Shown here piece by piece: positions 3,155 to 62,189 of a DNA stretch of 64,000 nucleotides. This stretch comes from Squalus acanthias (lineage: Eukaryota): NCBI GenBank assembly GCA_030390025.1, contig CM059431.1, forward strand, positions 99,078,001 through 99,142,000, in the 5' to 3' direction. The notes under the pieces were generated by a model. That model was not told where the DNA came from. It made no database searches and saw only the letters and a list, made by a program, of their open reading frames with translations. The translations under genes and the position numbers were made by a program. Each line of letters starts with the position of its first letter. Position 1 is the stretch's first letter.

Positions 3155-3484
3155 CGACCACATTCAAACGGATGGTGTGTCCCATTGCTTTTACATCCCC
3201 TTGGTTGGCTCGACATTGGTAGGAGCCTCTGTCAGTCAGGTTAATGGAAGAGAATGTGTAAACAATCAACATTTGGGCTGTGTCATTGGGAGAAGTTGTC
3301 CAGTTTATTTTTTCTCCACCCAGTGGCTCACAACTGTTTGAATGGAATTTACACCAATGCACCGCAAGTGGTTTTACTCGACAGTACTCTATCGTACAAT
3401 TCAACGTCAAACTGTCTCCAACAGAACGATTGAGCACAGCTCGGGGATATCTCACTTGCAATGAACAAGCATCACTTCCGTTTC
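3155..3484 (-). CDS. BTLA: Ig-domain exon of a BTLA (CD272)-like receptor
   Basis: 330-nt phase 1-1 exon, acceptor ttttcttttacag|GA and donor GTCG|gtaagt. Translation GNGSDACSLQVRYPR...LTLNCTIEYC...VHWCKFHSNSC...DRGSYQCRAN...GHTIRLNVV has six Cys in the BTLA pattern (C..CxxxYC..WCK..C..YxC) and six N-glycosylation sequons. Confidence 0.85.
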
Positions 3485-9766: not shown

Positions 9767-9776
9767 GGAGGTGCTA

Positions 9777-30391: not shown

Positions 30392-30482
30392 CTTGTCTCT
30401 GTACGGCAAAGAGAAGCAAGACGGCCAAGAGGAAACCGTCGCGAATTCTTATAAACCACATCGTTCTCCAAAAAGTAGTCAT
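30392..30482 (-). CDS. BTLA: Probable signal-peptide (leader) exon of the BTLA-like gene
   Basis: ATG at 30482 opens MTTFWRTMWFIRIRDGFLLAVLLLFAVQRQ followed by CAAG|gtaagg, a phase-1 donor. It joins in frame (G+GA=Gly) to the Ig exon at 3484. Lies in non-repetitive sequence; not in the ORF track. Confidence 0.7.
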
Positions 30483-34550: not shown

Positions 34551-35058
34551 ATACATACTCATATACATTCACACATGCACACACACGCACATATATCATT
34601 ATTAATTAATCACGGCTAACACTTCATTGATTTATTCGAGAGGCTTATGTACTGAAGCAGTCAACTATTGAGTGAACACCTGTTTCTACCCGAAACACAC
34701 AGGGGAGAAATTCATTATCACCCAGGAATGGGCCCTAACTTTGGAAAAGTTTGCGATTTAGTGCCAGGCGCTAATGAATCTCGCTGCACGCAAAATTCAG
34801 TGTCATCGCTCAAAGAAAGGATGGGAGTGCTAAATCAAGCGCTAATGGCCTGGCTCAGTGACGTTACACTCAAAGCGCTGACCAATATCAGGTGTAGTCT
34901 AATCGCAAATCACCATTGCCACAGGTGCTTTCCAGTTCTTAAAGGGGAGGTTCATTGATGCTGCAGAACCTCATTCTCAACATTGCTGCCTGTGAACCTG
35001 TGTCAGCAAGCAGAAGCAGCCAAGTCCAAGGAGCCGGACAACTCAACCAGCTGTACTC

Positions 35059-35301
35059 ATGGCAGATCCACGCCCCAGGGAGAGAGCTCGCAGATTTTCG
35101 GACCAAGCATTGGAGGAGTTGGTGTCCGATGTGAAGAGATGGAGGACGATGCACTACCTGGCAAGTGGCAGGAGGCCCTCGCCGCAAGTTTTCTGTGCCA
35201 TGTGGCGGGAGGTTGCCCAGCATGTCTTGGGCAGCACTGTGGTCCACAGGACCCACACACAGTGCAGGAAGAAATTTAACAAACTCACTCGGGTGGTCAG
35301 A
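35059..35301 (+). pseudogene. Harbinger Myb/SANT-like DNA-binding protein, first exon
   Basis: MADPRPRERARRFSDQALEELV...MWREVA...RTHTQCRKKFNKL; degenerate donor AGA|gtgaat. Confidence 0.8.
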
Positions 35302-35679
35302 GTGAATCAATGCTTCAACAAATGCTACATACCACCATTTGAACCACAGTCTGCACACACTGCCCAAAGCACCACCCGCCCCCCCCCCCCCCAGCACCCA
35401 CCCACCAACAATCCCTACCTACTAACACTCACACCCAGATGGAGAGGCCTTTAGAAGAAGGGTGATGGCTGATGTAAGAAAACTACTCGGCACTTGGTCT
35501 AAGCATTAAACAAAGCTTTAATCAACTGTTTTTCAACATGGAGATCTAGTTGTGTCCTTCACTAGTTCCTGTTGAGGAATGTCCTAAGTAAGCTGGGCCC
35601 ATGCCCGAGTATTTATACTCTCCCTGGACAGCGCCACCAGCAGGCCGCCCAGTATTACTTCATACATGAATGACAAGAT

Positions 35680-36479
35680 TCATGTCAATGGCCATGCACA
35701 CCGAGATGATAGGTGCAATGGCAAGGGTGTACGAGAGCCTCTTGGCAATGGTAAGGAGCGTGGAGGAGTCCACCTCCAACATTGCACAGAGCTCTGCGCA
35801 CATCATGGAGCCCATCATTTCCACTTTGCAAAGGATGGTAGACTCCCAGAGAGACCGCGGTGACACAGATCTGAAGCCGCGTGTCATGGACGATCTGGCA
35901 GCTTCCATTGCAGCACAGGCGGAAGCGACGCAACGTCTTAGTGCTGTAATGCAGTCTATGGTTGGTGCCATTCAATCTCAGACTGCTCTCATGCAGTCTC
36001 AGCTTGATGCCACGCAAGCTCTGACTGCTGCCATCGTGGCTGGGTCTACTACCGTCGACCGGGGCTTTCACGGTGTCGCAGCAGACCAGCAATCTGTGCT
36101 GCAACAGATTGCTAGGGATGCTGAGGTGCTGCCCAGGGGGAGTGGCAGAAGGTCAGTGGAGCAGGAACCTGCTGTCCTCTCTCAGGAGGACAGCATTCCT
36201 GCTCCCACCACTGCCACTCCGCCATTGCCCTTGTCGCTGCCTGTCATCCAGCCAGCCCAGACTGCTGCCGCCCATGCTGAGGTGGTGCAGGCTACAGCCG
36301 GGTCTTCCAGGCCCAGAGCTGGTCGAGGGTGTCCTGCAAGGCCACCTGAAGTCTCTCGCCCGGACACTCAGCAGCCTTCCACCAGCCGTGCTGCAGCCAC
36401 TGGGCCAACACTTCATAGGAGCACTAGAGTAAGCAAAGGCACAGTAACGACAGGCACTAAGGGATTGCACAAGGGTTAA
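35680..36479 (+). pseudogene. Probable C-terminal exon of the Harbinger Myb/SANT protein
   Basis: Long open, helical then P/A/S/T-rich frame ending tail-to-tail with the transposase. Confidence 0.6.
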
Positions 36480-36647
36480 TAGTAAATATTGTTGTTGTAA
36501 GGATGTGTTCACTGATTATTGATAAATTTATCAATTCACTTCGGATAATTTTGTACTGTCTCTCATTTCAGCTGTGCACTGTGATATGGCCTGCGACAGG
36601 GATGGAATGATGGGGATGTGGTGAGCAACGGGGATCTGGGGTTTAAT

Positions 36648-39016
36648 TTACTGGCACCTTCCGGAAGGCCGATTGAGTGACTGCCTCCTCCCTCGCTCTT
36701 GTTCCTCCTCCTCTCCCCCTTTCTCCTCCTGAGGTGGTCCCACAATCCCTGGTGGCAAGGGCTGGGCCCTCATGATGGCCAAGTTGTGGAGCATGCAGAC
36801 CACCACGAAATGGGACACCCGCTCTATCGAGTACTGGAGGGCTCCTCCCGAGTGGTCAAGGCAGCGGAACTGTTGCTTGAGCAGCCCGATGGTCTGCTTG
36901 ATGATGTTCCTGATGGCAACATGGCTGTCATTATATGAGCGCTGAGCAGGAGTGTTGGGGTTGCGGAGGGGAGTCATGAGTCAGGTGGAGAGCGGATAGC
37001 CCTTGTCTCTGACCAGCCAGCCGCGAGCTTGATGTGGTGGCTGGAACAGAGCTGGCACACTGGTCTGGCGCAGGATGAAGGCATCGTGGCTGCTGCCAGG
37101 ATAGTGGGCAATCACATTGAGGATTCGCTGTGTGTGGTCGCACACCAACTGCATATTAAGTGAGTGGTAGCCTTTGTGGTTATGGAAGATGTCAGGATTG
37201 TTTGTAAGCTTCGCAAAATTCCCCAGAAACTCGTATAGAACCCTAAAAGAGGTGAATTTTGGATTTGTCATACGAATTTGGGATGATGGGACCTAAATGT
37301 AGTGATTTGAGGCAGAAACCTCAGTTTTGGACATTTTTAAAGATCAGGGAAGAAAACCCCTGAGGAAAATGACTTTTGGATATGACTATGGGGAAAAATA
37401 CCTTTCACAGACACAAGACAGGCTGCGAAGGGGTGTGGCGAGGCAGTGGACAGCTTTTGGTGTCAAGCTGTCTGGAATTTGTTTGCACTGCAATCCAGGC
37501 AGGAGGAAGAACCTCACCCAAAACCTCACAAACACATCCAAAATTGAATAATTCAAAAACCCTTTTGAAAATCCCCAGGCCCAGTCAAGAAACCCAAAAC
37601 ACGAGGACAATGCAAACTCCGATTAAACAACAGATCGACAGGATGGAGCTATCCTGAAACCACTTCACACATTTACAAAACCAGTTAACACGCTAGTAAA
37701 GTCGTTACTGTTAACGAGGTCTTACAATGACCAGGATTTGATTTGGTTTTGACAAGGCCACTTCAATTTAGTATAATTGAAGGCCCATCAAGCAGTTACA
37801 AGTTCGAGCTCTCCAGTAAAACAGTTCAAGTTCAACAGAATTGAAAGCCTGTGTTGAACAGAAGTCAGGGCTGCAGTTACAGAAGCAGGCAGAAGGCAGT
37901 TTCCACAGTTCTGCAAGAAGGCAGTTCCACAGCTCGGAAGAAGACAGTTTAAACAGAGGCAGAGTTACAGCAAGAAGTTAAACAAAGAAGGCCAACAGCT
38001 TCACAAGCAAACCGACACGCAAGAAGAAACCAGAGCGACTGCCTCAGTGACCATCGGACACCTCGCGGCAACAAGAGCCTCACGAAACCTTTTACTCAAA
38101 AGACTCTAAACCCTAACTCTAAGCTGTCAAGGATTCGTTTGGTGAGCATTATCCCTGGTTCTCCAGAGTCCAACCTAGCTAGTGAAGTGGATTGGGAGGG
38201 GTGAAGTATTCTTCAAATGTTATTTCCCTCGCTTGTACCGAAGTGTTCCCCACTTTTAGCGTGATAAGAGTGTTTGTGTTGTGTTTTACTTCCTTGAATA
38301 AAAGTCAAAGTTTTTTCATCAAAACCTGTTGTCTACTGCACCTTTGTTCACAACCCCCAAATAAGTCTAAGGTCTAGAACCAGGGGCGTGGGAGTGATTC
38401 GAACCGCTCACTGAGTCAGAGGTGAGGCTGACCCCTACCACACCACCCCCTACATGTTATGCGGTGCCCACAAAGCCACGTGGGTGCAGTCAATGGCGCC
38501 CTGCAGCATGGGGAAGCCTGCTATCCGGGCAAAGCCACTTGCACACTCGTCCTGCTTCTCTCTGGTGATGGGGAAGGAAATGTAATCCCTTCTACTGTAG
38601 AGAGCCTCTGTGACCTCCTGGATGCAGCGATGGACAGCGAACTGCGAGATGTTAGTTATATCTCCTGTTGCACACTGGAAGGATCCGCTGGCGAAGAAAT
38701 TGAGGGCGACGGTGACCTTTACTGCCACTGGGAGAGCTGTGGTCACCCTGATCTGAGGCTGGCGGTCTGGTTGCAGGAGGTGGCAGAGTTCTGTGACCAC
38801 ATCCTTCGTGAAGCAGAGCCTTCGAATGCACTGCTCCTCGCTTAATTGGAGGTTGGAGAAGTGCTCTCGGAGTACCCTCGGAGGGTAAGGCCTCCTGTTG
38901 AGAGCCCTGATGGCCCTCCTCCTCCCTCTGGCCACATGTTCCAGTCTTTCTTGCTGCCTCCGCTCCCTCCACCATAGATCCTGGAGGGCAAGGTTGACTG
39001 CCAGTACAGCCCCCAT
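36648..39016 (-). pseudogene. Harbinger (HARBI1-type) DDE transposase, split by an LTR and carrying a nonsense codon
   Basis: 39016-38455: ALNFFASGSFQ...GFPMLQGAIDCTHV. 37202-36648: NHKGYHSLNMQLVCD...YPGSSHDAFIL...DKGYP...GLLKQQFRCL...MLHNLA. TGA at 36981-36983. Confidence 0.9.
37203..38454 (+). mobile_element. Solo LTR (1252 bp)
   Basis: TGTAAG...CTACA termini, 4-bp TSD tgtt (37199-37202, 38455-38458), AATAAA near 38298; removal restores APHNNPDIF in the transposase. Confidence 0.85.
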
Positions 39017-39929
39017 TAATGTAAGGATGTGCAGCACTTTGTTGTGAGAATAAATGTAACTCATTTTTAGAAGCTGCAACACTCCGGAGACTAAACAACA
39101 TTTGAATGACTGAATTCAACTCTTGAACTATCTCAAACTGACAAGGAAGCAGTGAAACTGCACTAACCCGAGAGCTGCGACTCATTCCTCATGATCCCTT
39201 TAAGTAGCGCCCCTGGAGCCGGCTACCGCCTGCTTCACGCCTCCTCTCCCTGTCGCTGTCGGGGCAAGACGCTAAGGCAGGGGGCGATAATCAATTTGGC
39301 AGGTTGGGCGCCCAGTGAGCGTTGCACACTCACTGACATCACGATCTGCCTGGCGCTGAAGTCCCCGGCGCCATCTCGTAGCGGAGGCGCTACGGGGGGG
39401 GGGGGGGGTCGGCCGAATTTGGCGTGCGGCGCTGGATTCACCTCGTCATGGCGCTACTTCCTCAGCGCCCCGTTAGCACCCGCGCCAGGCGCTAACTGGA
39501 GGCACTAAGGTACCGAATTTCTCCCCCACAGTGTTTAACTTGCTGTAAGCAGCAAATTTGTAATAGACTATAAAAGTAATGAAAATGTTTAGTGTTTTTT
39601 AGCCAATTTTAACAAAAGCCCAATTTAAACATTGGTGCCTCGGGGAGTGTGGACTGTATCAAAGAGAATACCTTGCCCAACTTCCGATCTGTCAGAAAAG
39701 GAGCAGAGATTTTGCTGCCGTCAAGACGATTTTCTCCCTAAAATATATGATGGATCCACGATTCATAAATATATCGTTTTTAAAAACAGGTTCTGTGTTT
39801 ATTGAGATGGGTGACATACAGAAAGAACGTATAAACACCAGAGAGAGAAAAATAAAGAACGGAATCTTTTTGAAAACGGCAAGACTCAGTTCACCCTGAA
39901 TATCAAACTAGCCCGGAACTGGAAACAGA

Positions 39930-41199: not shown

Positions 41200-41449
41200 T
41201 AAATGATTATTACATGGTCACTTTAATAGATAGTTTGATATTTCCACAAAACCGTTGTAAATTACACGCATACTTGTTTTAAATTGTACACAAACTAATA
41301 GTGACTGAACTAAGAAAAGGTTCCACAAATGGCGAGCCAGGCATCTCATTGCTGAGCCACTGTCTGCAGACCGAAGCGTATCGCTTCTGCTGGAGCTTCT
41401 GCTGGAGCTTCTGCTGGAGGGCTACGGTCGATTCATTCCTGGAAACGAC
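41200..41449 (-). other. Candidate terminal (3' UTR) exon of the second Ig gene
   Basis: Strong acceptor tatttgttttgtcacag|G at 41449 in unique sequence downstream of the 44390 donor; ATTAAA on the minus strand at 41222-41227. Confidence 0.35.
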
Positions 41450-41549: not shown

Positions 41550-43438
41550 TCATTCAAATACCACTCCAGAGACTTGAGCACATAATCCAGGCTGACACTC
41601 CCAGTACAGTACTGAGGGAGCGCCGCACTGTCGGCGGGGCAGTACTGAGGGAGCGCCGCACTGTCGGAGGGACAGTACTGAGGGAGCGCCGCACTGTCGG
41701 CGGGGCAGTACTGAGGGAGCGCCGCACTGTCGGAGGGACAGTACTGAGGGAGCGCCGCACTGTCGGAGGGGCAGTACTGAGGGAGCGTCGCACTGTCGGA
41801 GTGGCAGTACTGAGGGAGCGCTGCACTGTCGGAGGGGCAGTACTGAGGGAGCGCCGCACTGTCGGAGGGGCAGTACTGAGGGAGCGCTGCACCATCGGAG
41901 GGGCAGTACTGAGGGAGCGCTGCACTGTCGGAGGGGCAGTACTGAGGGAGTGCTGCACTGTCGGAGGATCAGTACTGAGGGAGCGCCACACTGTCGGAGG
42001 GGCAGTACTGAGGGAGCGCTGCACTGTCGGAGGGTCAGTACTGAGGGAGCGCCACACTGTCGGAGGGGCAGTACTGAGGGAGTGCTGCACTGTCAGAGGG
42101 TCAGTACTGAGAGAGCCGCACTGTCAGAGGGTCAGTACTGAGGGATGCTGCACTGTCAGAGGGTCAGTACTGAGGGAGCGCCACACTGTCGGAGGGGCAG
42201 TACTGAGGGAGTGCTGCACTGTCAGAGGGTCAGTACTGTGGCAGCGCCGCACTGTCGGAGGGGCAGTACTGAGGGAGCGCCGCACTGTCGGAGGGGCAGT
42301 ACTGAGGGAGCGCCGCACTTTCGAAGGGCATGTACTGAGGGAGTGCTGCACTGTCAGAGGGGCAGTACTGAGGGAGTGCTGCACTGTCGGAGGGTCAGTA
42401 CTGAGGGAGCGCCACACTGTCGGAGGGGCAGTACTGAGGGAGTGCTGCACTGTCAGAGGGTCAGTACTGAGGGAGTGCCGCACTGTCGGAGGGGCAGTAC
42501 TGAGGGAGCGCCGCACTGTCGGAGGGGCAGTACTGAGGGAGCGCCGCACTTTCGAAGGGCTTGTACTGAGGGAGCGCTGCACTGTCGGAGGGGCAGTACT
42601 GAGGGGGTGCTGCACTGTCAGAGGGTCAGTACTGAGGGAGCGCCACACTGTCGGAGGGGCAGTACTGAGGGAGTGCTGCACTGTCAGAGGGTCAGTACTG
42701 AGGGAGCGCCACACTGTCGGAGGGGCAGTACTGAGGGGGTGCTGCACTGTCAGAGGGTCAGTACTGAGGGAGTGCCGCACTGTCGGAGGGGCAGTACTGA
42801 GGGAGCGCCGCACTGTCGGAGGGGCAGTACTGAGGGAGCGCCGCACTTTCGAAGGGCTTGTACTGAGGGAGCGCTGCACTGTCGGAGGGGCAGTACTGAG
42901 GGGGTGCTGCACTGTCAGAGGGTCAGTACTGAGGGAGCGCCACACTGTCGGAGGGTCAGTACTGAGGGAGTGCTGCACTGTCGGAGGGGGCAGTACTGAG
43001 GGAGTGCCGCACTGTCGGAGGGGCAGTACTGAGGGAGCGCTGCACTGTCGGAGGGGCAGTACTGAGGGAGCGCTGCACTCTCTGAGGCGCAGTACTGAGG
43101 GAGCGCCGCACTGTCGAAGGGGCAGTACTGAGGGAGCGCCGCACTGTCGGAGGCGCAGTACTGAGGGAGCGCCGCACTGTCGAAGGGGCAGTACTGAGGG
43201 AGTGCTGCACTGTCGGAGGGGCAGTACTGAGGGAGCGCTGCACTATCAGAGGGGCAGTACTGAGGGAGTGCTGTTCTGTCAGAGGTGCCGTCTTTCGGAT
43301 GAGACATTAAACCGAGGCCCCGTCTGCTCTCTTAGCTGGACGTAAACGATCCCATGGCACTATTTTGGAGACGAGATGTCCTGGGGCCAATATTGATCCC
43401 TCAACCAACATCACTAAAACAGATTGTCTGGTCATTTT
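41550..43438 (+). mobile_element. SINE family A with the largest 33-bp array (about 41608-43283, roughly 50 units)
   Basis: Partial head, array with higher-order repeats of variant units, body. Confidence 0.9.
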
Positions 43439-44393
43439 CTGATGACATGGATTAGAGTTTTACAAGCTGCTCCTTGTGATCTTGAGAATAAGGGTTATTT
43501 GGGCACACTAGATTATGATGAGTTCTGCTAACAGTGCCATACCTGTGAGTGTGACAAAACAATTGTTTGAGTCTTAACAGGGGCTATTTCATTATCTTTC
43601 TGTCTGTACATTGATCCCTGGTCTCCATTACGCTGTTCCTGGGTGTGTCCCCGGTGTCCATGTTACTATCTCTATTGATAGTAAAGAAAGAAAGAAAGTC
43701 TTGCATTTCTCTAGCCCCTTTCACGTCCTCAGGACGTCGCAAAGCGCTTTACAGCCAATGAAGCACTTTTGAAGTGTAGTCACTGTTGTAATGTAGGAAA
43801 CACGGCAGCCAATTTGCGCACAGCAAGCTCCCACAAACAGCAATGTGATAATGACCAGATAATCTGTTTTTTTAAGTGATGTTGGTTGTGGGATAAATAT
43901 TGGCCAGTACGCCGGGGAGAACTCCCCTGCTCTTTTAACTAGACAACAGTATCTAAAACATTGGTGGCAATAAGTAAAACCGGATATTAACAAGGTACAG
44001 GATTAATAGTTGCAAAATTAGTTTCAGCAGCCCCTCCCAAACCCCCGACCTCCACCACCTAGAAGGACAAGGGCAGCAGGCGCATGGGAACACCACCACC
44101 TCCAAGTTCCCCTCCAAGTCACACACCATCCTGACTTGGAAATATATCGTCCGTTCCTTCATCGTCGCTGGGCCTAAATCCTGGAACTCCCTCCCTAACA
44201 GCACTGTGGGAGCACCTTCACCACACGGACTGCAGCGGTTCAAGAAGGCGGCTCACCACCACCTTCTCGAGGGCAGTTAGGGCTGGGCACATTCCGAGAC
44301 TGAATCAGTTAAATGGATATTGTTGGGAGAACTGATACAGTAAAATTATAGCCATAATTGTGACATTGCGAAGTAATTCTTTCACTTACCTGT

Positions 44394-44518
44394 TCAAAAA
44401 TTTAACGCAGTGACACACTGCAGAATGAACATTAATACCCACAGTGTATGCACAGAAATCTCAAGGGTTTTCATCCCACTGTTTTCAGCAGCCAGGTCTA
44501 CTTCCTCCTGAAGTTTTC
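44394..44518 (-). CDS. C-terminal exon of the second Ig gene, GPI-anchor-signal-like tail
   Basis: Acceptor aataatacag|GA in phase 1 with the Ig exon 2 kb upstream (A+GA=Arg). Reads RKLQEEVDLAAENSGMKTLEISVHTLWVLMFILQCVTALNF-stop. Strong donor ACAG|gtaagt 4 nt after the stop (exon end 44390). Confidence 0.7.
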
Positions 44519-44627
44519 CTGTATTATTTAGGAAAGTGGAGAAATTAGTTTAATGCTGCAGGTACCTTGGAATCCTTAGAATCAAATATGGGGAAGTGGT
44601 CAACATAGGCACACCATGAAGTGAATT

Positions 44628-45040
44628 AGAGGCTTGTATTCCCTGGAGTGTAGAAGATTAAGGGGTGATCTAATCGAGGTGTTTAAGATGATTAAAGGAG
44701 TTGACAGTGTAGAGAGAGAGAAACTATTTCCTCTGGTGGGGGGAGTCCAGAACAAGGGGGCATCACCTTAAAATTAGAGCCAGGCCGTTCAGGGGTGATG
44801 TCAGGAAGCACTTCTTCACACAAAGGCTGGCGGAAATCTGGAACTCTCTCCCCAAAAAGCTGTTGAGGCTGGGGGTCAATTGGAAATTTCAAAACTGAGA
44901 CTGATAGATTTTTGTTGGGTAAGGGTATTAAGGGATACGGAACCAAGGCGGGTAGATGGAGTTAAGACACAGGTCAGCCAGGATCTGATTGAAGGGTGGA
45001 ACAGGCGCGAGGGGCTGAGTGGCTCCTCCTGTTCCTGTGT
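44628..45040 (+). mobile_element. CR1 3' fragment
   Basis: CR1 ORF2 end and 3' UTR. Confidence 0.8.
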
Positions 45041-46480: not shown

Positions 46481-46576
46481 CTCGTAAATATAATCTTGTT
46501 TGCACATCTGCCTGGTTGAATATGCAATTACTAGTAATGCAATTAAATTGCTGGTGTACGAAGTTAGTCTACTTAC

Positions 46577-46936
46577 TCCGAACCGTTAAGGTGATGATGT
46601 GTCCATGTGCTGAAATTGACATGGCGCCAGTTATCTTGGCCTGGCACTGATAGCGTCCACTATCTGATTGATCCAGCTTTAAAAACCGAAGGAAGGCAAT
46701 CAGCTCAATGCTCTCATCTTCTTGTGGCTTTGGCTCTGTGAAGCCAACTTCATAGTTATGGTCATCTTCTATTCCAGAACATTCACTTCCTCCGATCAAT
46801 TTCTTACACCAGCGAATATCAGGCCTTTCATTCTTCGAGCTGTTGTAATTCACGGTGCAGTTCAAAGTCAGTCTCCTTCCTTCATCAATCTCAATGTGCG
46901 CTGATTTGTAGATGACCTGCAATGACCCTTCATACT
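46577..46936 (-). CDS. Ig-domain exon of a second BTLA/CD160-family gene
   Basis: 360-nt phase 1-1 exon, acceptor cctattcttcacag|AG and donor CGGA|gtaagt. EYEGSLQVIYKS...EGRRLTLNCTV...IRWCKKLIGGSEC...DSGRYQCQAK...AHGHIITLTVR; four Cys, canonical DxGxYxC. Confidence 0.85.
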
Positions 46937-47460
46937 CTGTGAAGAATAGGAAATGGCCGTGAGTGCCTGAGTACAGTGCAGAGCTATTCATTGCGAGGTG
47001 TGTGCTCCCGACTTGGAGTCACACTGGTTCAGCGATAGGACCATGGCGGGGGTGGGGGGTTGGTTTTGCATGAATTGGTGGCTCGTGGCTCGAGTTTTGT
47101 GTCGTGGGATCTGTTTGAGCTCCATAATACTCGATGTGCTCTCGGACTTCAAGGTCTGACCCAGAACCCACTGCCCTGCAGTTAATTATTGCAAGCCTAA
47201 AACTGACGACATTGAAATCTATTAAACAATGACCAGAAATAATATCAAAATACTCATTGAAGGGAAGGGAGAAACAGGATGTAAAGACAGGGATGGAGTA
47301 AAATGACGGGAGAAAGAGCGGTTTCTCCTCATCACAAAGCGGATTAAAAGCTAAATCTTCCTGCCTCTATATGGTCTCAGTTGCTTCAATATGTTTTTTT
47401 CTATAAAACTGACTCTCCTCTTTGTCCGAGTGTGAATGTTGACACGCACAGCACTCAGGA

Positions 47461-47855
47461 ATGGGTCGCCAACCCTCCAGGATTGTACTGGAGTCTCCAG
47501 AAATTAACAATTAATCTCCTCCGAGCAACTCGGGAGAAAAATCATAGGGACATAAAATTAAAAAATTGTGTGTTTTTTCTCTTCCATTTTCCTTTTTCTG
47601 TTAGTTATAAAAATATTGGAGATGGTGGTGGGGGCGGGGAAAGAGTGTTTGACTGACAGTCGACCATCATCCAATTGGGTAACGAGGAGTCTGTTCGCTT
47701 TCCGATTGGCCGTGGGAAGGCAGGGCACCGCGAGGATGGACGTGTCGGGCGACCAATGGTGGGAGAGCGTGGAGCGGGGCGGTTGGAGGTTGGGGGCGGG
47801 GGGGCTATGACATGAAACCTCCAGGGATACGTCAACCCATAGTTGCCGACCCCCT
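47461..47855. mobile_element. hAT-type MITE with 8-bp TSD
   Basis: gggtcgccaac ... gttgccgaccc TIRs; actcagga at 47453-47460 and 47856-47863. Confidence 0.85.
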
Positions 47856-50800
47856 ACTCAGGAGAGATGTGATAGCAGCGTGCAGAGTAAATACTAGACC
47901 CGTGAGAAGAGATTCAGCAGGGACAGACTCAGGGTGCCGTGAGGTCTTTGGGAAGGGCCTGCCTCCTGCCTGGGCATGTGGGGGGGGGGTGGGAGGGTGG
48001 GGGGGCGGTTGGGGGGGGTGGCGGGATTATGTTTTTCATTGTCCCCAGCTCGGGGAAGTAAGAGACAGCTATAGAGGCAGGTCTGTGGTAGCATAAGTGA
48101 TCAGTTTTAATCGAGGACTTTCACCAGCACTATAAACGCTGGGATAGCCCTGTCTCCGTTTTGGATCCAGCACGATACTCCTTATAAAAAGGAGCATTAT
48201 CAAGGCAAGATACACACGCAATAAACACCCTGCAAAGTAATTTAATTTCACCTGCAGCAATTAAGTTAAAATCTATTGAGAGAAACAAAGTACGAGGGGG
48301 GGGAATGTAACCTGAATATTGTCGCAGGCCAACTGACAATTGGTCAGAAGGAATGTCAATCATTCCAATCAGCCCACCGATTGGTTGTCTGGTCGTCGCT
48401 GTAGCTGACAGTTCTTAATAAGTTGTAGAATCACGGACTCGTACAGTAGAGAGGGAGGCCATTCGGCCCATTGTGGCTGTGCCGGCTCTTTGAAAGAGCT
48501 CTCCAATTAGTCCCACTCCCCCTGCTCTTTCCCCATAGCCCTGCAAACTTCTCCTTTTCAATTCCCCTTTGAAAGTTATTATTGAATCTGCTTCCACCGC
48601 CCTTTCAGGCAGCGCGTTCCAGATCACAACAACTCGCTGCGTAAAATGAGTCACGTCATTACCGTGGTCTGGTACTGGTCTCGATGAGATCAGATATTCA
48701 ATGGCGGGTGGCTTCATATGTCCGCGGTCAGGCAGTGGTGTGTAGTGGGGATCTTAAGTAACAGGAAAATAAGGAAAAAGAGGGGGAAGAAAACAGATAG
48801 AGCAGGGGGATGGACAATCCCCGTATTAGCTGCGCGGAATAAAACCAACAACAGAACAGTTATGACTGGGGAAAATTACGTTAAAATCACCTTATTTGTG
48901 TGATATCTATAATGAGTGTAAATAGAAAGTAACTCACAAACTGTGAGAAAAAAACAAATGAAATGTCTTTCTATTAATACTCCCCAGATCTCATGGGGGT
49001 GACCTGCAGGAGATCGCTCCCAGCTAATGATTGCAGCCACACAAGATTGAGATGGTTGAGAATTCACGGCATGAAATCAGGAGGGGTTTTGATACAGTTG
49101 ATAGGATTACACGGGATATACGGCACAGAAACAGGCCATTCGGCCCAACCAGTCCATGCCGGCGTTTATGCTCCATCCGAGCCTCCTCCCGTCTTTCCTC
49201 ATCTAAATCTATCAGCGTAACCCTCTATTCCCTTCTCCCTCATATGCTTGTCCAGCCTCCCCTTAAATGCATCTATACTATTCGCTTCAACCACTCCCTG
49301 TGGGAGCGAGTTCCACATTCTCACCATTCTCTGGGTAAAGAAGTTTCTTCTGAATTCCCGATTGGATTTCTTGGTGACTATTTTATATTGATGGCCTTTA
49401 GTTATGCTCTTCCCCACAAGGAGAAACTGTTTCCAGTGGCAGGAGGGTCGGTAACCAGAGGACACAGATTGAAGGTGATTGGCAAAAGACCCAGAGGGGA
49501 GATGAGGAGAATATTTTTACACAGCGAGTTGTTGTGATCTGGAATGCGCTGCCTGAAAGGGCGGTGGAAGCCAATTCAATAGTAACTTTCAAAAGGGAAT
49601 TGGATAAATAATTAAAAAGGAAAAATTTGCAGGGCTACGGGGAAAGAGCAGGGGGAGTGGGACTAATTGGAGAGCTCTTTCAAAGAGCCGGCACAGGCAC
49701 GATGGGCCGAATGGCCTCCTGCTGTGCTGTAAGATTCTAATGCCTATGGACTGTAAGATTAGGATCACAGGTCACACACAGATTACCCAAAGGGTCTTAG
49801 GAGTTGTAATGCTTTTTATTAAAGAGCTACAGTTTAAAGCATCATCAGATATTACATGTGGTTTAAGCTGAGTATAATAGACATACAACCCGTGACAGTA
49901 GAGAGCGATCTACGACTCCCGAAGCGGAATGCCACGACCGGATGGACGGATAGATGCCCGTGTTAATACCGTCAATATCGTGCTAGTGATAGCTTCCAGT
50001 TTATTACAGAAATCTGCAATAGGCTGTGAAAGACACACCTCAAAAGCAATAGAGTTTGTCCTTTAAAAAAACAACGTACATAGTTTTATATATATTGTGT
50101 TTGTGATCTGGGTGATCGCGGCTCCGTGGGCAGCTCTCTCGCCTCTGAGTCCGAAGGTTGTGGATTCCACTCCAGAGACTTGAGCACAAAATCCAGACCG
50201 ACACAATTACATCCACTTGGGGAACTGGAGGGGCGCAGAGATCTCGGAGGGTCGGAGGAGGTTACAGAGATAGGGAAGGGCGAGGCCATAGAGGGATTTG
50301 AACATAAGGATGAGAACTTTAAATTCGAGGCGTTGCCGGACTGGGAACCAATGTAGGTCAGCGAGCACAGGGGTGATGGGTGAACGGGACTTGGTGCGAG
50401 GGCAGCAGAGTTTTGGATGGTACAAACAAGGTCTGAAGAGGAATTTCAAGGCTATGAACTGATTTGGAGGCTGAGAGGGCAATAATAAACCACTTGAGCT
50501 TTGCTCTTTGAGTTTATGATGTGATTAGAACTCCTTGATAAGATTTTTCAGCCAGTTATTGAGTACCTTCTGACACACAACACAAGGAGTGAAGATTATA
50601 GTTAGATTGTTTTAAAGCAAAGGTGCTTAATAGCAATTCTAATTATTTCACCCAATATTAGTCAACGGTATGCAAAATATGATTAAAAATAGAATTTTCT
50701 ACCATCCAATGTCACCAAACTGTGTAAAAGATCTCAGTCCACTGAATGAGTAAAAGTTAAATGGGGTGAATATAATAAATCCAATGTGGAATTCAGGAGA

Positions 50801-51865
50801 AACATCTTCATCCAGAGAGCGGTGAGAATGTGGAACTCGCTGCCACAGGGAGTGGTTGAGGCAAATAGCATCGATACATTTAAGGGGAAGCTGGATAAAC
50901 ACATGAGGGAGAAGGGAATAGAAGGATATGTTGATAGGGTGAGATGAAGAGGGGTGGGAGGAGGCTCATGTGGAGCAGAAACACCGGCACGGACCAGTTG
51001 GGCCGAATGGCCTGTTTCTGTGCTGCACATTCCATGTCATTCTATGAATTGGCTCCTGAGGCAGGGATTAGACCCCCTGAAGTGACTATCAGGTATTTAG
51101 ACAACAACGACTTTCATTTATATAGCGCATTTAACGTAGTAAAACATCCCAAGTTGTTTCACAGGCACGCTATCAAACCAAATAAGACATTAGGGCAGGT
51201 GACCAAAAGCTTGGTCAAAGGAGTAGGTTTTAAGGAGCGTCTTAATGGAGGAGAGTGAGGCGGAGCGGTTCTGGGATGGAGAGGCCATTGAGGACCACAG
51301 GGTTTTATTGGATGATGGCCATTTAGACCTTGCTCCAGGGCACGAATACCCCATTTATGGGGCTGGTCTCACCCTCAGACCCTCCCAGGGTTGAGCAGCA
51401 CTCGCGAGGGAAGCACTGATGGGGAATCACAGGTACACAGATCCTCATTTCCCACCCATTTCAGCAGCAGGTGGGCTGAGGCAGGGGCAGAGAGCAGCGA
51501 TGTTATGGAGGTGGTCTTTGCCTTAGTTATATGTTTGCCTTCCTGGACTGTCCCACGTAACCCAGTGCAAATTATATCAGAAGTTACCAAGCCCAAAACT
51601 TGGGCACTGGGATACATTAATGAACACCTTATCTAATTAACAACATCTGTGATAAAACAATGAATCACAAGGTTAAGTGCCGAGGGTTACGTAAAGCAAT
51701 TGGATATGTACTATTACTCAAAATTCCAAAGGCAAAACACTGGAAATCTGAAATAGAAACAGAAAATGCTGGAAAGACTCAGCAGGTCAGGCAGCATCTG
51801 TGGAGAGAGAAACAGAGTTAACGTTTCAGGTCGATGACCCTTTCGTCACAATTGGAAAAAAGGAA

Positions 51866-52312
51866 AAAGGAAGACTTGCATTTATATAACACCTTTCACA
51901 ACATCCCAAAGTGCTTCAGTGAAGTATTTTTGAAGTGCAGTCACTGTTGTAATGTAGGAAACACGGCAGCCAAATTGCACACAGCAAGCTCCCACAAACA
52001 GCAATGTGATGATGACCAGATCATCTGTTTTTAGTGATGTTGATTGAGGGATAAATATTGGCCAGGTCACTGGGGATAACTCCCCTGCTCTTCTTTGAAA
52101 TAGTGCCATGGGATCTTTTACATCCACCCGAGAGAGCAGATGGGGCCTCGGTTTAACGTCTTATCCGAAAGACGGCACCTCCGACAGTGCAGCACTCCCT
52201 CAGCACTGCACTGGAGTGTCAGCCTAGAGTTTTGTGCTCAAGTCCCTGGAGTGGGACTTGAACCCACAACCTTCTGACTCAGAGGTGAGAGTGCGACCCA
52301 TTGAGCCAATGG
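51866..52312 (-). mobile_element. Complete SINE family A, unexpanded
   Basis: Reverse complement of the 29393-29850 type with a single unit. Confidence 0.85.
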
Positions 52313-52512
52313 CAGGAGATGTTAGAGATTTAACAGCTTACAACCAAACACAGAGCCAGGAAAAAAGGGAGGCAGTGACAGGGTGAAGGGCAGGAGTGAT
52401 TAAATGATGAAAGAGTCTAAATTATCAGAGGCTCAACAGTAATTTAAGTGCGACATGATATCTCACTCAGCCTATGTTTTGCTAATCAGCAGAATAACAC
52501 AGTTTAATGTCC

Positions 52513-53790
52513 AACTCGTGCTTGACTAATCCACTGGAATTTTTTGAGGATGTAACTGATAGAATACATAAGGGAGAACCAGTGGATGTGGTGTATTTGG
52601 ACTTTCAGAAGGCTTTCGATAAGGTCCCGCATAAGAGATTAGCGTGTAAAGTTAAGGCACATGGGATTGGGGGCAAGGTACTGACTTGGATAGAGAACTG
52701 GTTGGCAGACAGGAAGCAAAGAGTTGGAATAAACGGGTCTTTTTCCGAGTGGTAGGCAGTGACTAGTTGGGTTCCGCAGGGATCGGTCCTAGGACCCCAG
52801 CTATTCATTATATATATTAATGATCTAGACGAGGGAACTAGATGTAATATCTCCAAGTTTGCAGATGACACAAAGCTGGGTGGGCGTGTGTGCTGCGAGG
52901 AGGATGCCGAGAAACTCCAGTATGATTTGGACAGGTTGGGTGATTGGGCAGAAGCATGGCAGATGCAGTATAATGTGGATAAATGCGAGGTTATCCACTT
53001 TGGTGGCAAAAACAGAAAGGCAGATTATTATCTGAATGGCAATAGATTGGGAGAAGGTGAAGTGCAACGAGACCTGGGTGTCCTTGTGCACCAGTCGCTG
53101 AAGGTAAGCATGCAGGTACAGCAGGCGGTTAAGAAGGCAAATGGTATGTTGGCCTTCGTAGCGAGAGGGTTTGAGTACAGGAACAAGGATGTCTTGCTGC
53201 AGATGTACAGGGCCTTAGTGAGACCACACCTTGAGTATTGTGTGCAGTTTTGGTCGCCTTATCTGAGGAAGGATGTTCTTGCCATGGAGGGTGTGCAGCG
53301 AAGATTCACCAGACTGATACCTGGGATGGCAGGAGTGACGTACGAGGAGAGATTGGGTTGATTGGGCTTATACTCGCTGGAGTTTAGAAGAATGAGAGGA
53401 GATCTCATTGAAACTTATAAAATTCTAACAGGACTAGACAGACTAGATGCAGGAAGGATGTTCCCGATGGTCGGGGAGTCCAGAACCAGGGGTCACAGTC
53501 TAAGGATAAGGGGTAAGCCATTTAGGACTGAGATGAGGAGGAATTTCTTCACCCAGAGAGTGGTGAACCTGTGGAATTCTCTACCACAGAAGGCAGTTGA
53601 GGCCAAGTCAGTAAATATATTCAAGAAGGAGTTAGATATATTTCTTAAGGCTAAAGGGATCAAGGGATATGGGGAGAAAGCAGGGACAGGGTACTGAATT
53701 TGGATGATCAGCCATGATCTCATTAAATGGCGGAACAGGCTCGAGGGGCCAAATGGCCTACTCCTGCTCCTATCTTCTATGTTTCTATGT
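52513..53790 (+). mobile_element. 5'-truncated CR1 LINE
   Basis: SCLTNPLEFFE...YLDFQKAFDKVPH...PQGSVLGP...FADDTK; two in-frame stops (52753, 53359). Confidence 0.95.
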
Positions 53791-53915
53791 AAATAATGAT
53801 AAGATATCAGGTCCGCTCTAGGCTCTTATCTCTGCATGAGCCATAACACATGAACAGCTTATCGGTTGATAGGTTTGTTCTGGCACAGTGTGGCTGACCA
53901 GGTTTGATCTTGGAA

Positions 53916-54843
53916 CACAAAAGCAAAATACTGCAGAGGCTGGAAATCTGAAATAACAGCAGAAAGTGCTGGAAACACACAGCAGGTCAGGCACCATCGA
54001 GGGGAGAGAATCAGAGTTAACATTTCGGGTCGAACTCTTCGTCAGAACTGGGGAAGGTTAGGGAGGAGAGATTTCTAAGCAGGGGCAGGGAGGAGGGGAG
54101 GATAGAACAAAGGGAAGGTCTGTAATAAGATGGAAGGCCGGAGAGATTGAATGACAAAAGGGATGATGGTGCGAGGCAAAAGGAGAGGTAATGGGACAAG
54201 TTAAGAAACAAAAGATGGCTCGAGATGATGTGTGAATGATGATGGCATCAACATTAACAGCTACCATGTGAGGAAACAAGAGAAAAAACTAAAATATAAA
54301 GAAATACAGAGGCCAATTTATAGTCTGAAATTGTTGAACTCGATGTTGAGTCCAGAAGGCTGTAAAGTGCCTAATCGAAAGATGAGGTGCTGTTCCTCGA
54401 GCTTACGCTGAGCTTCAGTGGAACAGTGTAAGAGGCCGAGGACGGAGAGGTCAGAGTGGGAGAGGAGCGGAGAATTAAAGTGACAGGCGACCGGAAGCTC
54501 CGGGTCACCCTTACGGACTGAACGGAGGTGTTCCGCAAAGCGGTCACCCAGTCTGCGTTTGGTCTCCCCAATGTAGAGGAGACCACATCGTGAGCAGCGA
54601 ATACAGTATACTAAATTGCAGGAAGTACAAGTAAATCGTTGTTTCACCTGGAAGGAGTGTTTGGGGCCCTGGAGAGTGGGAAGGGAGGAGGTAAAAGGGC
54701 AGGTGTTGCATCTCCTGCGCTTGCACGGGAAGGTGCCGGGCGAAGGGGAAGGGGTGTCAGAGGAGTGGACCAGGGTGTCACGGTGGCAGCGGTCCCTTCG
54801 GAATGCGGAAAGGGGAGGGAGGGGAAGATGTGTTTGGTGGTGG
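53916..54843 (-). mobile_element. Penelope-like element, GIY-YIG endonuclease end plus terminal repeat, 10-bp TSD
   Basis: CKRRRCNTC...NLVYCIRCSRCGLLYIGETKRRLGDRFAEH...EQHLIFRLGTLQPSGLN; gatcttggaa at 53906-53915 and 54844-54853. Confidence 0.9.
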
Positions 54844-54922
54844 GATCTTGGAATTGCTGGGTGATACCGAGGATTTGCTCGAGCCTCTAGTTTACTGAAA
54901 TGCCGCAGTGTGTCCAGGTTGA

Positions 54923-55303
54923 CAACAGCAACAACTTGAATTTCTATAGCGCCTTTAATGTAGTAAAACGTCCCACGGCACTTCACAGGAGCGAATATCA
55001 AACAAAATTTGACACCGAGCCACATATTAGGACAGGTGACCAAAAGCTTGGTCAAAGAGGGAGGTTTTAAGGAGTGTCTTAAAGCAGGAGAGAGAGGTGG
55101 AGAGGTTTAGGGAGGGAATTCCAGAGCTTGGGGCCTCGGCAGCTGAAGGCACGGCCACCAATGGTGGAGCGATGGAAATCGGGGATGCGCAAGAGGCCAG
55201 AATTGGAGGAGCGCAGAGATCTCGGAGGGTTGTGGGGCTGGAGGAGGTTACAGAGATAGGGAGGGGGCGAGGCCACGGAGGGATTTGAACACAAGGATGA
55301 GAA
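54923..55303 (-). mobile_element. L2 3' fragment
   Basis: PRSLRSSNSGLLRIP...PKLWNSLP and tail. Confidence 0.8.
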
Positions 55304-55762
55304 TATTTGCTCAGGCACAGTGCGGCTGGTACCATCTGATCTTGGAATGACTGGGTGATTTGGGGGTTTTCCCTGTGTCTCTGAAATGCCGCAGTGTGTC
55401 CAGGTTGACTAGTATTCCTCCGAAAGCCCCTCGTTTTCCTACAGTCTATCCAAAGCAGTATGGGAAAAGTGTTCTTTTTTTTTTATTTCTATCTTGTAGA
55501 CATGTGCTCAGTGCTCACAAATACCATTACACACCCTGCTCATATATACAATGTGTCCTGTCAGCATTGTAACTGCGGATTTAATCAGCGAGTTCCCGTC
55601 TAGAAGGAACTCCTGTTGATGCGAATCACTAGACGTTATAAAGACTCGTTTGTATCTGGGCCCGAAGTTGTGCCCATTCTGCTTGTGTCAAATTATGCTC
55701 AAGCATCCACCCAATCACATTAAAATACGCCCAAATAATCATTTATATTGCCCAAGTATAAT

Positions 55763-56685
55763 AAATAAATATTGGCCAGGACACCGGGGAGAACTCTCCT
55801 GTTCGTCTTCTAAATAGTGGCTGTGGGATCTTTTACATCCACCTGGGAGAGCAGATGGGGCCTTGGTTTAACGTCTCATCTGAAAGATGGCCCATCCGAC
55901 AGTGCGGCGCTCCCTCAGTACTGCCCCTCCGACAGTGCAGCACTCCCTCAGTACTGCCCCTCCGACAGTGCAGCACTCCCTCAGTACTGCCCATCCGACA
56001 GTGCGGCGCTCCCTCAGTACTGCCCATCCGACAGTGCGGCGTTCCCTCAGTACTGCCCCTCCGACAGTGCAGCACTCCCTCAGTACTGCCCATCCGACAG
56101 TGCGGCGCTCCCTCAGTACTGCCCCTCCGACAGTGCGGCGCTCCTTCAGTACTGCCCCTCCGACAGTGCAGCACTCCCTCAGTACTGCCCATCCGACAGT
56201 GCGGCGCTCCCTCAGTACTGCCCCTCCGACAGTGCAGCACTCCCTCAGTACTGCCCCTCCGACAGTGCAGCACTCCCTCAGTACTGCCCCTCCGACAGTG
56301 CGGTGCTCCCTTAGTACTGCCCCTCTAACAGTGCAGCACTCTCTCAGTACTGCCCCTCCGACAGTGCAGCACTCCCTCAGTACTGCCCCTCCGACAGTGC
56401 AGCACTCCCTCAGTACTGCCCCTCCGACAGTGCAGCACTCCCTCAGTACTGCCCCTCCGACAGTGCAGTGCTCCCTCAGTACTGCCCCTCCGACAGTGCA
56501 GCTCTCCCTCAGTACTGCCCCTCCGACAGTGCGGCGCTCCCTCAGTACTGACCCTCCGACAGTGCGGCGCTCCCTCAGTACTGCACTGGGAGTGTCAGCC
56601 TGGATTATGTGCTCAAGGCTTGTGGAATGGTTTTGAACCCAAAACCTTCTGACTCAGAGTGCTACCCACTCAGCAACGGCTGACA
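55763..56685 (-). mobile_element. SINE family A with 33-bp array (about 55896-56585)
   Basis: Head, array, partial body. Confidence 0.85.
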
Positions 56686-58934
56686 CTGATGTTTTTTCCA
56701 TTTGCACTAGTATGTTCAGTTGTCTGGTCACTGTGAATCCCACCACAGGGTCGGTGACAGATCTATAATTAGAAGACGCAAAGTCAAAACCTGCAAGTTG
56801 CATAATGAAAGCGTGTGATGCAACAAGAAAAACCCACCCTAGGTTATTGTGGGTGACTCTTGACTTCCCCAAACATAACCAGCGGGCCTTTCTCTCATAT
56901 TTTCCTATGATGAGTTCTTTTCTATCTTAGGTCATCAACTTTACTGGTAAGATAGCAAAATACTGCGGATGCTGTAAATCCGAAATAACAACAGAAAACG
57001 CTGGAAAAACTCAGCAGGCCAGGCAGCATCCGTGCAGAGAGAAACAGAGTTAACTAGTAAACCTGGCTACCCTTACATTTTGCAGCTTCGAGTCTTCTGT
57101 TTCTTCAAGATGCAAAACTGCAGCCCGATGGGTTTGACCGTCGCTGGTTTATTTTAACATGGAATTAAAAGCACAGAAACAGGCCATTCGGCCCAACTGC
57201 CCGTGCCGGTGTTTATGCTCCACACCAGCCTCCTCCCACCCCTCTTCATCTAACACCATCAGCATAACCTTCTATTCCTTTCTCCCTCGTGTGTTTATCA
57301 AGTTTCCCCTTAAATGCATCTCTGCTATTGGCCTCAACCCCTCCCTGTGGTAGCGAGTTCCACATTCTCACAGAGTTAGTGGTGATCGGTATTATCAACC
57401 CGTTATGGGGCTGGCTTTTGCGATATAAATGGACCCACTGACAGGATCGTGGTTTTGAAGTTTGAAGTACAAGGACCCAGAAATTTGTTGACGCCATGCC
57501 TGCTTTACGGGCGCAGAACGGGCGGCCTGCGCCCATTCCACCCCGGAATGCACCGCCCGCCATATTGGTAAAGGCTCCCGCGTAGGCGTCTAAAGCTCGC
57601 GCCTAAAACAGGCACGAGGCCCTTTTGTAAATCAGGGGCCGATCTCCTGTTTCAGGCCCCCTTTCCCAAAATCCGTTAGCAACTGACCACAGCTCGTGCC
57701 CTTGCACGCAGTCAGTACTCCTCAGGAGCTCGGGAGCCAACCAGCAGCTTTTAAAGAGCCGCTGGAGGCTGACTCCCGAAAGGTTAAGTTTTTATTTCTT
57801 TTACTTCCCTTATTGTGGAGCTGGGAGGAATCAGGAGTGGTCGCCCAGCTCCACATTAAATTGGGGGGGCACCGCTCTCCCCCTCCCCCCCCCCCAATTA
57901 CCTCCTCTCCACGCCCACCCCCCTCCACCGCGCCCCCCCCCCGGACTTGTCTTACAGCCCCGGCTGAGATTCGCGTCGACCGATCTTGCTTAACCCCCGA
58001 GATCTCCGCGCTCCTCCAATTCTGGCCCCTTGCGCCTCCCCGATTTTAATCGCTCCACCATTGGCGGCCGTGTCTTCAGCTGCCTGGGCCCCGAGCTCTG
58101 GAATTCCCTCCCTAAACCACTCCGCCTCTCTCTCCTCCTTTAAGACGCTCATTAAAACCTACCTCATTGACCAAGCTTTTGGTCACCTGTCCCTAATATC
58201 CCCTTATGTGGCTTGGTGTCAAATTTTGTTTGATAATCGCTCCTGTGAAGCCCCTGGGGACGTTAACAGCGCTATATAAATGCAAGTTGTTGCTGTAAAG
58301 TCGGTAGAGATAAAAGATCTACCCTGATAATCTACCACCACGATCGTTTTATTTTTGTAGATGATCAAATCCCAATCTGTTGATTGCTGAAAAAGCAAAT
58401 GCACTTCAGTGCTCATTTAGCGAGAGAGGCTAGCTACCACACTCCAGCATTGTAGCTACACAGGAAACTGCTGGAACAAAAGCATAAAAGGTATTTTATT
58501 AAACACTGTGACAGCCATCGACTCTGCTCTTCCTGTTTGCAAAGCCCTGGGGAGACAAGGGCTGTGGTTTAATTTCAAAAGGTGCTTAAGCCAGGGGCTG
58601 CGCCTCTGAATATTTGTTAGCTGTTCAATGTCTCCAGCAACGATTAGATTTTCAGAGGCTGCTAGTTGACATCGGAACGGAGCTGCCTGGACTGAGAGCG
58701 ATAGATTTTCTTTGGGTAGCAAGGGCGGGTGACTGGAGTTCAGGCGCACATCAGCCATGATCTAATTCACTGGCCCTCAAACCGGGGCCCACCGACCCCT
58801 GGGGGTCTGTAGAGACTTTCAAGGGGGTCTGTGAACTAATGTGAAAGTGCTCACTGAGCAGGGCCGGCCTTGCGGGTGGGCGACATGGGCGATGCCCAGG
58901 GTGCTGTGGTCAAGAGTAAGCGGAGGAGCAGCAG

Positions 58935-60615: not shown

Positions 60616-60892
60616 GGCTGGCTGTCTCACACAGGAGGGGAGCGAGCCTGGAGGAGCGCTGAGAGCGGCACAAAGATCGGCAGGTACTAAGGGAGGTGGT
60701 GGCGTCAGGTGAGTTTTTTTCAATATTTAAGTAGTACATACTTAAACTCAAAGATAGGGCGCCAAAATACCAGTTCGCCCAGAGCGCCATTTTCCCTAAG
60801 GCCTGTTTCCGAGTATAAAAACAACTTCTTGTCTGCTGTGCCTAAAAACTCCGCAATCGTGCACTGCGGAAGCTCACAGTTGCCATATAGAA

Positions 60893-61568
60893 AAAGAAAG
60901 AAAGACTTTCATTTATATAGCGCCTTTCACAACCACCGGACGTCCCAAAGTGCTTTACAGCCAATGAAGTACAGTCACTGTTGTAATGTAGGAAACACGG
61001 CAGCCAATTTGCAAGCAGCAATGTGATAATGACCCGATAATCTGTTTTAATGATGTTGGTTGAGGGATAAATATTGTCCAGGACACCAGGGAGAACTCCC
61101 TGCTCTTCTGTTAAATAGTGGCCGTGGGATCTTTTACATCCACCCAAAAGAGCAGAGACGGGGCCTCGGTTTAACGCCTCATCCAAAAGATAACACCTCC
61201 GACAGTGCGGCGCTCCCTCAGCACTGCACCTCCGACAGTGCGGCGCTCACTCAGCACTGCACCTCCGACAGTGCGGCACTCCCTCAGCACTGACCCTCCG
61301 ACAGTGCGGCACTCCCTCAGCACTGACCCTCCGACAGTGCGGCACTCCCTCAGCACTGACCCTCCGACAGTGCGGCACTCCCTCAGCACTGCACCTCCGA
61401 CAGTGCGGCACTCCCTCAGCACTGCACCTCCGACAGCGCGGCACTCCCTCAGCACTGCACTGGAGTGTCAGTCTGGAATTTTGTGCTCGAGTCTCCTGAG
61501 TGGGACTTGAATCCACAAACCTTCTGACTCGGAGGCGAGGGTGCTACCCACTAAGCCACGGCTGACAC
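60893..61568 (-). mobile_element. Full SINE family A with short 33-bp array (about 61196-61460)
   Basis: Head, array variant with cagcactg instead of cagtactg, body, tail. Confidence 0.85.
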
Positions 61569-61671
61569 TATAGAGTGAGCCAAAAAATTTACAAATACAC
61601 AGAGACATTAATAACACATTTTGCGTTTTTGTCATTCTGGCAACTATGTGCTTCTGTACAACACAGAATGG

Positions 61672-62097: not shown

Positions 62098-62189
62098 AAC
62101 ACAGACACCCTTAAAAAAGCTGATCGATGATAGTATGTGAGTAAATTACTTTAAAATGGCAAAGTATTTGAAACGACCTCATGCTGCCA

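Follow-up and report, generated by a model that had tools for sequence, protein, structure and literature searches.

A Short Terminal Exon with a Probable GPI-Anchor Signal in a CD160-Like Gene Upstream of BTLA in Squalus acanthias

Does the short exon that follows an Ig exon in the genome of Squalus acanthias close the gene with a GPI attachment signal, and to which gene would such an exon belong? The window analyzed here, a stretch of 64,000 nucleotides (GCA_030390025.1, contig CM059431.1, positions 99,078,001 to 99,142,000), contains only two Ig exons of the BTLA family, one of which has its own leader exon and belongs to BTLA. The other forms a gene that, within the window, has a single Ig V-like ectodomain and lies upstream of BTLA in a head-to-tail arrangement with both genes on the minus strand. 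We assign a probability of about 0.6 to the reading that the short exon, hereafter the tail exon, is the last coding exon of a GPI-anchored shark orthologue of CD160 in tandem upstream of BTLA. The features of the locus are listed in Table 1.

Table 1. Features of the CD160-like gene and the neighboring BTLA gene; positions are those of the window.
Feature	Position	Strand	Basis or remark
Ig V-set exon, CD160-like gene	46577..46936	-	Open frame, 4 Cys, 2 N-glycosylation sequons, phase 1 at both ends
Last coding exon (tail exon), CD160-like gene (129 nt)	44390..44518	-	Phase-1 acceptor to donor: linker, predicted omega site, spacer, hydrophobic tail, stop
N-S-G codons: predicted omega (N), omega+1, omega+2	44475..44483	-	Layout rules as given in PMC2571997 and PMC7125958
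Hydrophobic tail, omega+10 to C-terminus, 19 codons, no charged residues	44397..44453	-	Translation
TGA stop, 4 nt ahead of donor	44394..44396	-	Reading frame
Splice donor GTAAGT, full consensus, phase 1 in coding frame	44384..44389	-	Consensus match
Candidate 3' UTR exon	41222..41449	-	Acceptor-like site at 41449, ATTAAA at 41227
BTLA leader (signal-peptide) coding exon	30392..30482	-	tblastn to N-termini of shark BTLA P0002-P0004 (E 1e-5 to 0.04); phase-1 donor
BTLA Ig exon	3155..3484	-	Human BTLA E 6e-10; shark BTLA-family proteins 50-55% identical

The acceptor AG of the tail exon lies at 44520-44519, and its donor begins at 44389. The junctions of the Ig exon and the tail exon are both in phase 1, and the joined frame yields a 41-residue tail consisting of a 12-residue linker, N-S-G, a 7-residue spacer, and the hydrophobic end. 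An earlier sequence-only reading had placed this exon in frame with the Ig exon, and our analysis recovered the same tail at exactly the same coordinates. That reading had made no mention of the donor behind the stop, which matches the consensus at 7 of 7 positions and is the only such donor on the minus strand of the window. By an arithmetic estimate, about one full-consensus donor per 64 kb is expected by chance, so that the weight of this donor rests on its position 4 nt behind the stop, where it implies a further non-coding (3' UTR) exon. A stop codon this close to the last junction would escape nonsense-mediated decay under the 50-55 nt rule. In a scan between 46576 and 30620, the tail exon was the only candidate for a TM-like phase-1 exon, and 14 other acceptor-like sites were present between the Ig donor (46577) and the tail exon. 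The exon sits in a repeat-free island of a window that is 56% self-repeating. Between the tail exon and the candidate 3' UTR exon, a 33-bp tandem array of 50 copies occupies 41607-43268, and similar arrays occur across the window.

We compared the tail with two published descriptions of GPI signals. One scheme comprises a linker of approximately 11 residues, small residues from omega-1 to omega+2, a spacer from omega+3 to omega+9, and a hydrophobic segment from omega+10 (PMC2571997), and the other gives a propeptide of 20-30 residues and names small residues only for omega and omega+2 (PMC7125958). The omega candidate of the tail is the Asn at residue 13, followed by Ser and Gly, which places small residues at omega and omega+2; the residue at omega-1 is Glu, which departs from the small residue expected at that position in PMC2571997. 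The predicted propeptide is 28 residues long; its last 19 residues are uncharged, and the hydrophobic segment is not succeeded by basic residues. The layout described in the sequence-only reading, namely N-S-G, a spacer, a hydrophobic end, and no cytoplasmic tail, therefore agrees with the published schemes. In Kyte-Doolittle hydropathy, the best 11-residue mean of the tail was 2.46 and the best 19-residue mean 1.89, the latter lying below the values of the BTLA transmembrane segments (2.69-3.0 over 19 residues in 4 of 4).

A hand-made rule for GPI signals was applied to every acceptor-like site on either strand of the window (n = 1037), 277 of which open a frame of 25-65 residues to a stop. 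Fourteen sites passed (14/1037, or 14/277 with a frame), the tail exon among them, and 7 of the 14 fell in one tandem array. The same rule was passed by 3 of 15 homologous tails, comprising 3 of 6 tails of teleost single-Ig proteins and none of 9 amniote tails, and it is for this reason a rough guide. All 15 tails examined from the homologous CD160, CD160-like, and teleost-type proteins were ≤56 residues long and contained a hydrophobic stretch. Taken as a signal, the tail exon most likely specifies a GPI membrane anchor, as judged from its translated layout.

The 19-residue mean, which is still 1.89, and the Glu at omega-1 also fit a different outcome, in which the exon is used and its product is not GPI-anchored, ending as a tail-less membrane protein, a secreted protein, or a degraded one, or in which the whole gene is a silent remnant; the negative search for a leader exon in the 17 kb upstream, described below, is a further point for this outcome. 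We consider it quite unlikely given the open Ig frame with canonical Cys and Trp residues and a confidently predicted fold, the canonical splice sites, and the spacing between N-S-G and the hydrophobic end, which is as expected.

If the tail exon closes a GPI-anchored CD160 orthologue, its transcript would join a leader exon, the Ig exon, and the tail exon, and the donor that follows the stop would link these to a 3' UTR exon. The ER transamidase would cut after the Asn at tail residue 13 and add the GPI anchor there, and the product would be a one-Ig protein anchored in the outer leaflet, from which it could be shed. Such a protein would probably bind HVEM, like its paralogue BTLA, considering its family membership and a His that should match BTLA His127, and it would signal only through partners.

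Sequencing reads bear on the first of these steps. One contig, from a run that we guess to be RNA (X6), fitted 46576-46822 from its second letter and ceased to match immediately beyond the Ig donor, at a point where the intron and the tail exon have one G in common before they diverge. This contig gives a one-letter hint of splicing at the Ig donor that is compatible with, and not specific to, the acceptor at 44518. The three small runs compared with the window (X6, X7, and X8) left the bin 44385-44573 uncovered, and none of the joints listed for them linked 46577 to 44518, a result that weighs neither for nor against the junction. A contig of another species (run X13) spanned 44253-44670 with 32 differing letters and 2 gaps (about 92% identity), and the neighboring intronic pieces were about as similar in that species as the span of the tail exon.

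Scans of 46937-64000, i.e., 17 kb upstream of the Ig exon, revealed no convincing leader (signal-peptide) exon for the CD160-like gene. The leader intron of BTLA spans 27 kb in this locus, and the leader of the CD160-like gene may thus lie beyond the window. A hydrophobic frame on the minus strand (48230-48125), located 1.2 kb upstream of the Ig exon behind stacked acceptor-like sites, was rejected as a leader because it has no ATG and a weak donor. Compared with homologous leaders, the frame near these positions gave no significant match in 8 of 8 cases (score reached by 169-2699 of 3000 shuffles).

The tail exon itself contains an ATG at 44474, after which come 28 codons and a donor in phase 1, as the BTLA Ig exon requires. 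It could thus be viewed as a leader exon of the BTLA type that the TGA has disrupted or that has been turned into a hydrophobic signal at the C-terminus, and the tuatara BTLA leader indeed showed the lowest shuffle count of the 19 pairwise targets (14/5000 block shuffles). A single result at p 0.003 in 19 tests is, however, borderline after correction, and 4 of the 5 BTLA leaders tested, including three from sharks, were unlike the exon (1327-4694/5000). The acceptor of the exon is also a good one and keeps the frame of the upstream Ig exon. As the leader of the neighboring BTLA it is excluded, because the leader exon of that gene at 30482-30392 matches the N-termini of the shark orthologues. 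Taken together, descent from a BTLA-type leader appears very improbable to us.

Of the Scyliorhinus and Heterodontus proteins to which the BTLA Ig exon is 50-55% identical, three of four have a TM segment and tyrosine motifs. A tblastn search with four shark BTLA-family proteins detected no TM or cytoplasmic-tail exon in the 64-kb window. The sequence-only reading had called this neighbor an inhibitory receptor, which agrees with the tails of its shark orthologues, whereas the tail exons of the neighbor itself lie outside the window. The CD160-like gene, for its part, shows neither the full TM span nor the ITIM/ITSM tail of a BTLA in the sequence up to the BTLA leader and stops after a short hydrophobic segment. 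The region between the two genes includes a single-copy block at 34600-39900 with open reading frames at 34996-35454 and 35670-36479 on the plus strand and 36648-37292 and 38450-39115 on the minus strand, which we take to resemble remnants of PIF/Harbinger transposons. The stretches 9699-10820, 20382-21236, 52498-53697, and 54318-55106 presumably represent reverse-transcriptase-like fragments of CR1-type LINEs and one Penelope-like endonuclease fragment.

The predicted fold of the Ig domain had a pLDDT of 88.5, and the domain matched the V-set family with an E-value of 2.3e-8. A search of 1.84 billion representative sequences yielded 66 matches, with ≤37% identity among one-domain proteins. 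Thirty of these 66 were looked up by name and included emu CD160, CD160-like proteins of gecko, turtle, and platypus, teleost zgc:174945, BTLAs, and four two-Ig chondrichthyan proteins; no single-Ig shark orthologue was found among the 30. Similarly, a word search for a shark orthologue gave no candidate at 65-209 residues, and none of the 10 proteins returned by a profile search was named from a chondrichthyan. Three of the chondrichthyan proteins encountered in this study (P0001 from Scyliorhinus, P0039 from Callorhinchus, and P0054 from Rhincodon) combine two Ig domains with a hydrophobic end that lacks tyrosine motifs, and they constitute a third chondrichthyan type of the BTLA family that falls within the shark BTLA group in the trees.

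The CD160-like Ig domain scored 85-97 bits against CD160-like profiles and 56-72 bits against BTLA profiles. With four profiles made without the sequences of the window, whose members had been gathered with the window's own domains as queries, the domain scored 84.8 against amniote CD160, 79.6 against teleost-type single-Ig proteins, 65.9 against bony-vertebrate BTLA, and 55.9 against shark BTLA; the corresponding values for the neighboring BTLA domain were 66.4, 71.1, 75.1, and 140.0. A profile built from the domain together with 20 relatives recovered human CD160 (E 4.9e-15) ahead of human BTLA (1.4e-9), and a profile of the domain and 9 teleost-type proteins without amniote CD160 again ranked human CD160 (1.3e-8) above human BTLA (1e-6); multi-domain proteins outranked both in these lists. 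Structure-based comparisons pointed to BTLA. Searched alone against the PDB, the domain matched human BTLA with an E-value of 0.0035, and CD160 was absent among the 9 matches. Fold searches with the predicted model (Foldseek and VIA) both ranked BTLA first (in one of them with Z 14.5, rmsd 2.4, and 103 aligned), and solved CD160 was absent among the matches listed by either program. An atlas search gave only generic V-set clusters for the Ig domain and no usable match for the tail.

Three unrooted trees were built, with human CD160 not included. In the tree of all 54 domains, in which long branches were retained, the CD160-like domain was drawn to a long outgroup branch. After 12 long or duplicate rows were dropped, the domain grouped with amniote CD160 and teleost single-Ig proteins against all BTLA (support 93/90), and the tree calculated under a mixture model with platypus also dropped showed the same split of CD160-like and teleost-type proteins from all BTLA (96/81). 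An approximately unbiased (AU) test did not reject a grouping of the domain with shark BTLA (p 0.39). Membership of the Ig domain in the BTLA/CD160 family is certain, and the comparisons of its sequence make it quite probable that the domain is a CD160 orthologue. The link to CD160 that the earlier reading had drawn is upheld by the layout of the sequence, the profile scores, and two of the three trees.

The AU test, the direct tandem position, and the structural match to BTLA would also suit a BTLA duplicate of chondrichthyans in which a stop in the TM exon created a GPI signal separately from that of CD160; such a gene would be CD160-like in function only. Such a duplicate would not be expected from the profile scores, in which shark BTLA is the lowest for this domain (55.9 compared with 84.8 for amniote CD160), from its 4 Cys residues as opposed to 6 in the neighboring BTLA domain, or from its position outside the BTLA side in two trees. 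The tail exon is relevant to this explanation, since by eye it could be aligned without gaps to the stalk and the beginning of the TM segment of shark BTLA, with N-S-x-M-K-T and a Trp in register, at p about 0.05 (score reached by 234-293 of 5000 block shuffles; rank 3-7 among the 277 frames of the window). In addition, a stop codon is described as having repeatedly turned the TM exon of an ITIM receptor into a GPI-signal exon among the CEACAMs (PMC2832619), a precedent for such a conversion. Weighing these points, we regard an independent origin from BTLA as unlikely.

The comparisons of the tail leave its descent at the level of a suggestion. No significant likeness to CD160-like tails was detected (score reached by 364/2000 and 419/2000 block shuffles). 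Among the 19 pairwise targets, the tail of the Megalops protein gave the top raw score of 36 (30/5000 block shuffles), and both this tail and the tuatara BTLA leader surpassed the shark BTLA stalk/TM. The phase-1 donor is kept behind the stop, as expected of a former TM exon. On these alignments, derivation of the tail exon from a BTLA stalk/TM exon is only suggested.

The reading of the gene as a CD160 orthologue can be extended to a broader scenario, which we put forward tentatively and hold to be possible rather than probable. CD160 and BTLA, the two HVEM ligands of the Ig family, which lie on different human chromosomes, would represent a tandem pair predating the split of sharks and bony vertebrates; the GPI signal of CD160 would be a shortened BTLA stalk/TM exon closed by a stop, with the former phase-1 donor, once spliced to cytoplasmic exons that have since been lost, persisting 4 nt behind it; and teleost zgc:174945 would be an unrecognized fish CD160. 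The position of the shark gene right beside BTLA hints that these two immune regulators arose by tandem duplication early in jawed-vertebrate history. The gene model P0037 of Chelonia mydas, in which a CD160-like domain is fused to CD200R1-like domains (E 2.7e-40), suggests that CD160-like and CD200R1-like genes are neighbors in the turtle and hints that the turtle gene is located in the BTLA/CD200R region. CD200R and BTLA are linked in the human genome. The proteins P0051, P0053, P0078, P0022, and P0045 are of the teleost zgc:174945 type, lie on the CD160 side of the trees, and have a hydrophobic end, and they are candidates for fish CD160.

Regarding function, the end-to-end ranges of the structural alignment indicated that a His of the CD160-like domain should correspond to BTLA His127, which has been named as a contact residue (10.1101/591883). 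The sequence-only reading had proposed a non-signaling ligand or decoy. Human CD160-GPI does not support this as the default: it enhances the activation of Jurkat cells upon HVEM engagement (PMC4163173), and in NK cells it reportedly acts via Syk and PI3K, with shedding of the protein as a soluble inhibitor also reported (PMC9676924). Because the human GPI form co-stimulates despite having no cytoplasmic tail, the decoy reading is unsupported.

CD160 as a GPI protein, GPI signals, and the origin of such signals from TM exons are already known, and the mechanism itself is therefore not new. CD160 has been listed as poorly conserved across vertebrates (PMC5340972), and a survey from 2026 lists both CD160 and BTLA as specific to mammals (PMC13262535). 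We found no paper on shark CD160 in the literature covered, which comprised few subscription journals; the accessible text of PMC11599192, PMC10770119, PMC12151841, and PMC13612297 contained none, and the text of the elephant shark supplement had no match for CD160, BTLA, HVEM, or TNFRSF14. A search for papers on the teleost zgc:174945 single-Ig proteins was likewise negative in this literature. Bird and reptile CD160 are already named in databases. Fish BTLAs were reportedly described by Bernard et al. in 2007. If the preferred reading is correct, the presence of a GPI-type CD160 next to BTLA in a shark would place the origin of the pair in the ancestor of jawed vertebrates, tandem duplication would explain the common ligand of CD160 and BTLA, and the gene would be a candidate NK/T-cell marker for shark and teleost immunology, with a moderate bearing on the evolution of immune checkpoints.

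Among known systems, BTLA belongs to the same Ig subfamily as the shark CD160-like protein and is its best fold match, with 35 identities between the CD160-like domain and the neighboring BTLA domain; it differs in its full TM span, its ITIM/ITSM tail, and its 6 rather than 4 Cys residues. The GPI-anchored CEACAMs belong to an unrelated family, and their TM-to-GPI conversion by a stop codon serves only as an analogy. The teleost zgc:174945 relatives resemble the shark gene in having one Ig domain and a hydrophobic end and fall on the same side of the trees; they are uncharacterized and share 21-36% identity with the shark domain. Human and amniote CD160 share with the shark gene one Ig V-like domain, a short tail with a hydrophobic end, and a G-H motif near the end of the domain, although the amniote proteins are only 28-34% identical to the shark domain in the alignment and their tails show no significant sequence match. 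A counterpart of the human TM isoform, CD160-TM, was not found in the shark window. CD160 is characterized by HVEM binding and by expression on NK and T cells. Human BTLA is located at 3q13. Human CD160 is GPI-anchored, is shed, and binds HVEM, and its gene lies at 1q21.1 (PMC9676924). The two genes thus occupy different chromosomes in human, whereas in the shark they are adjacent.
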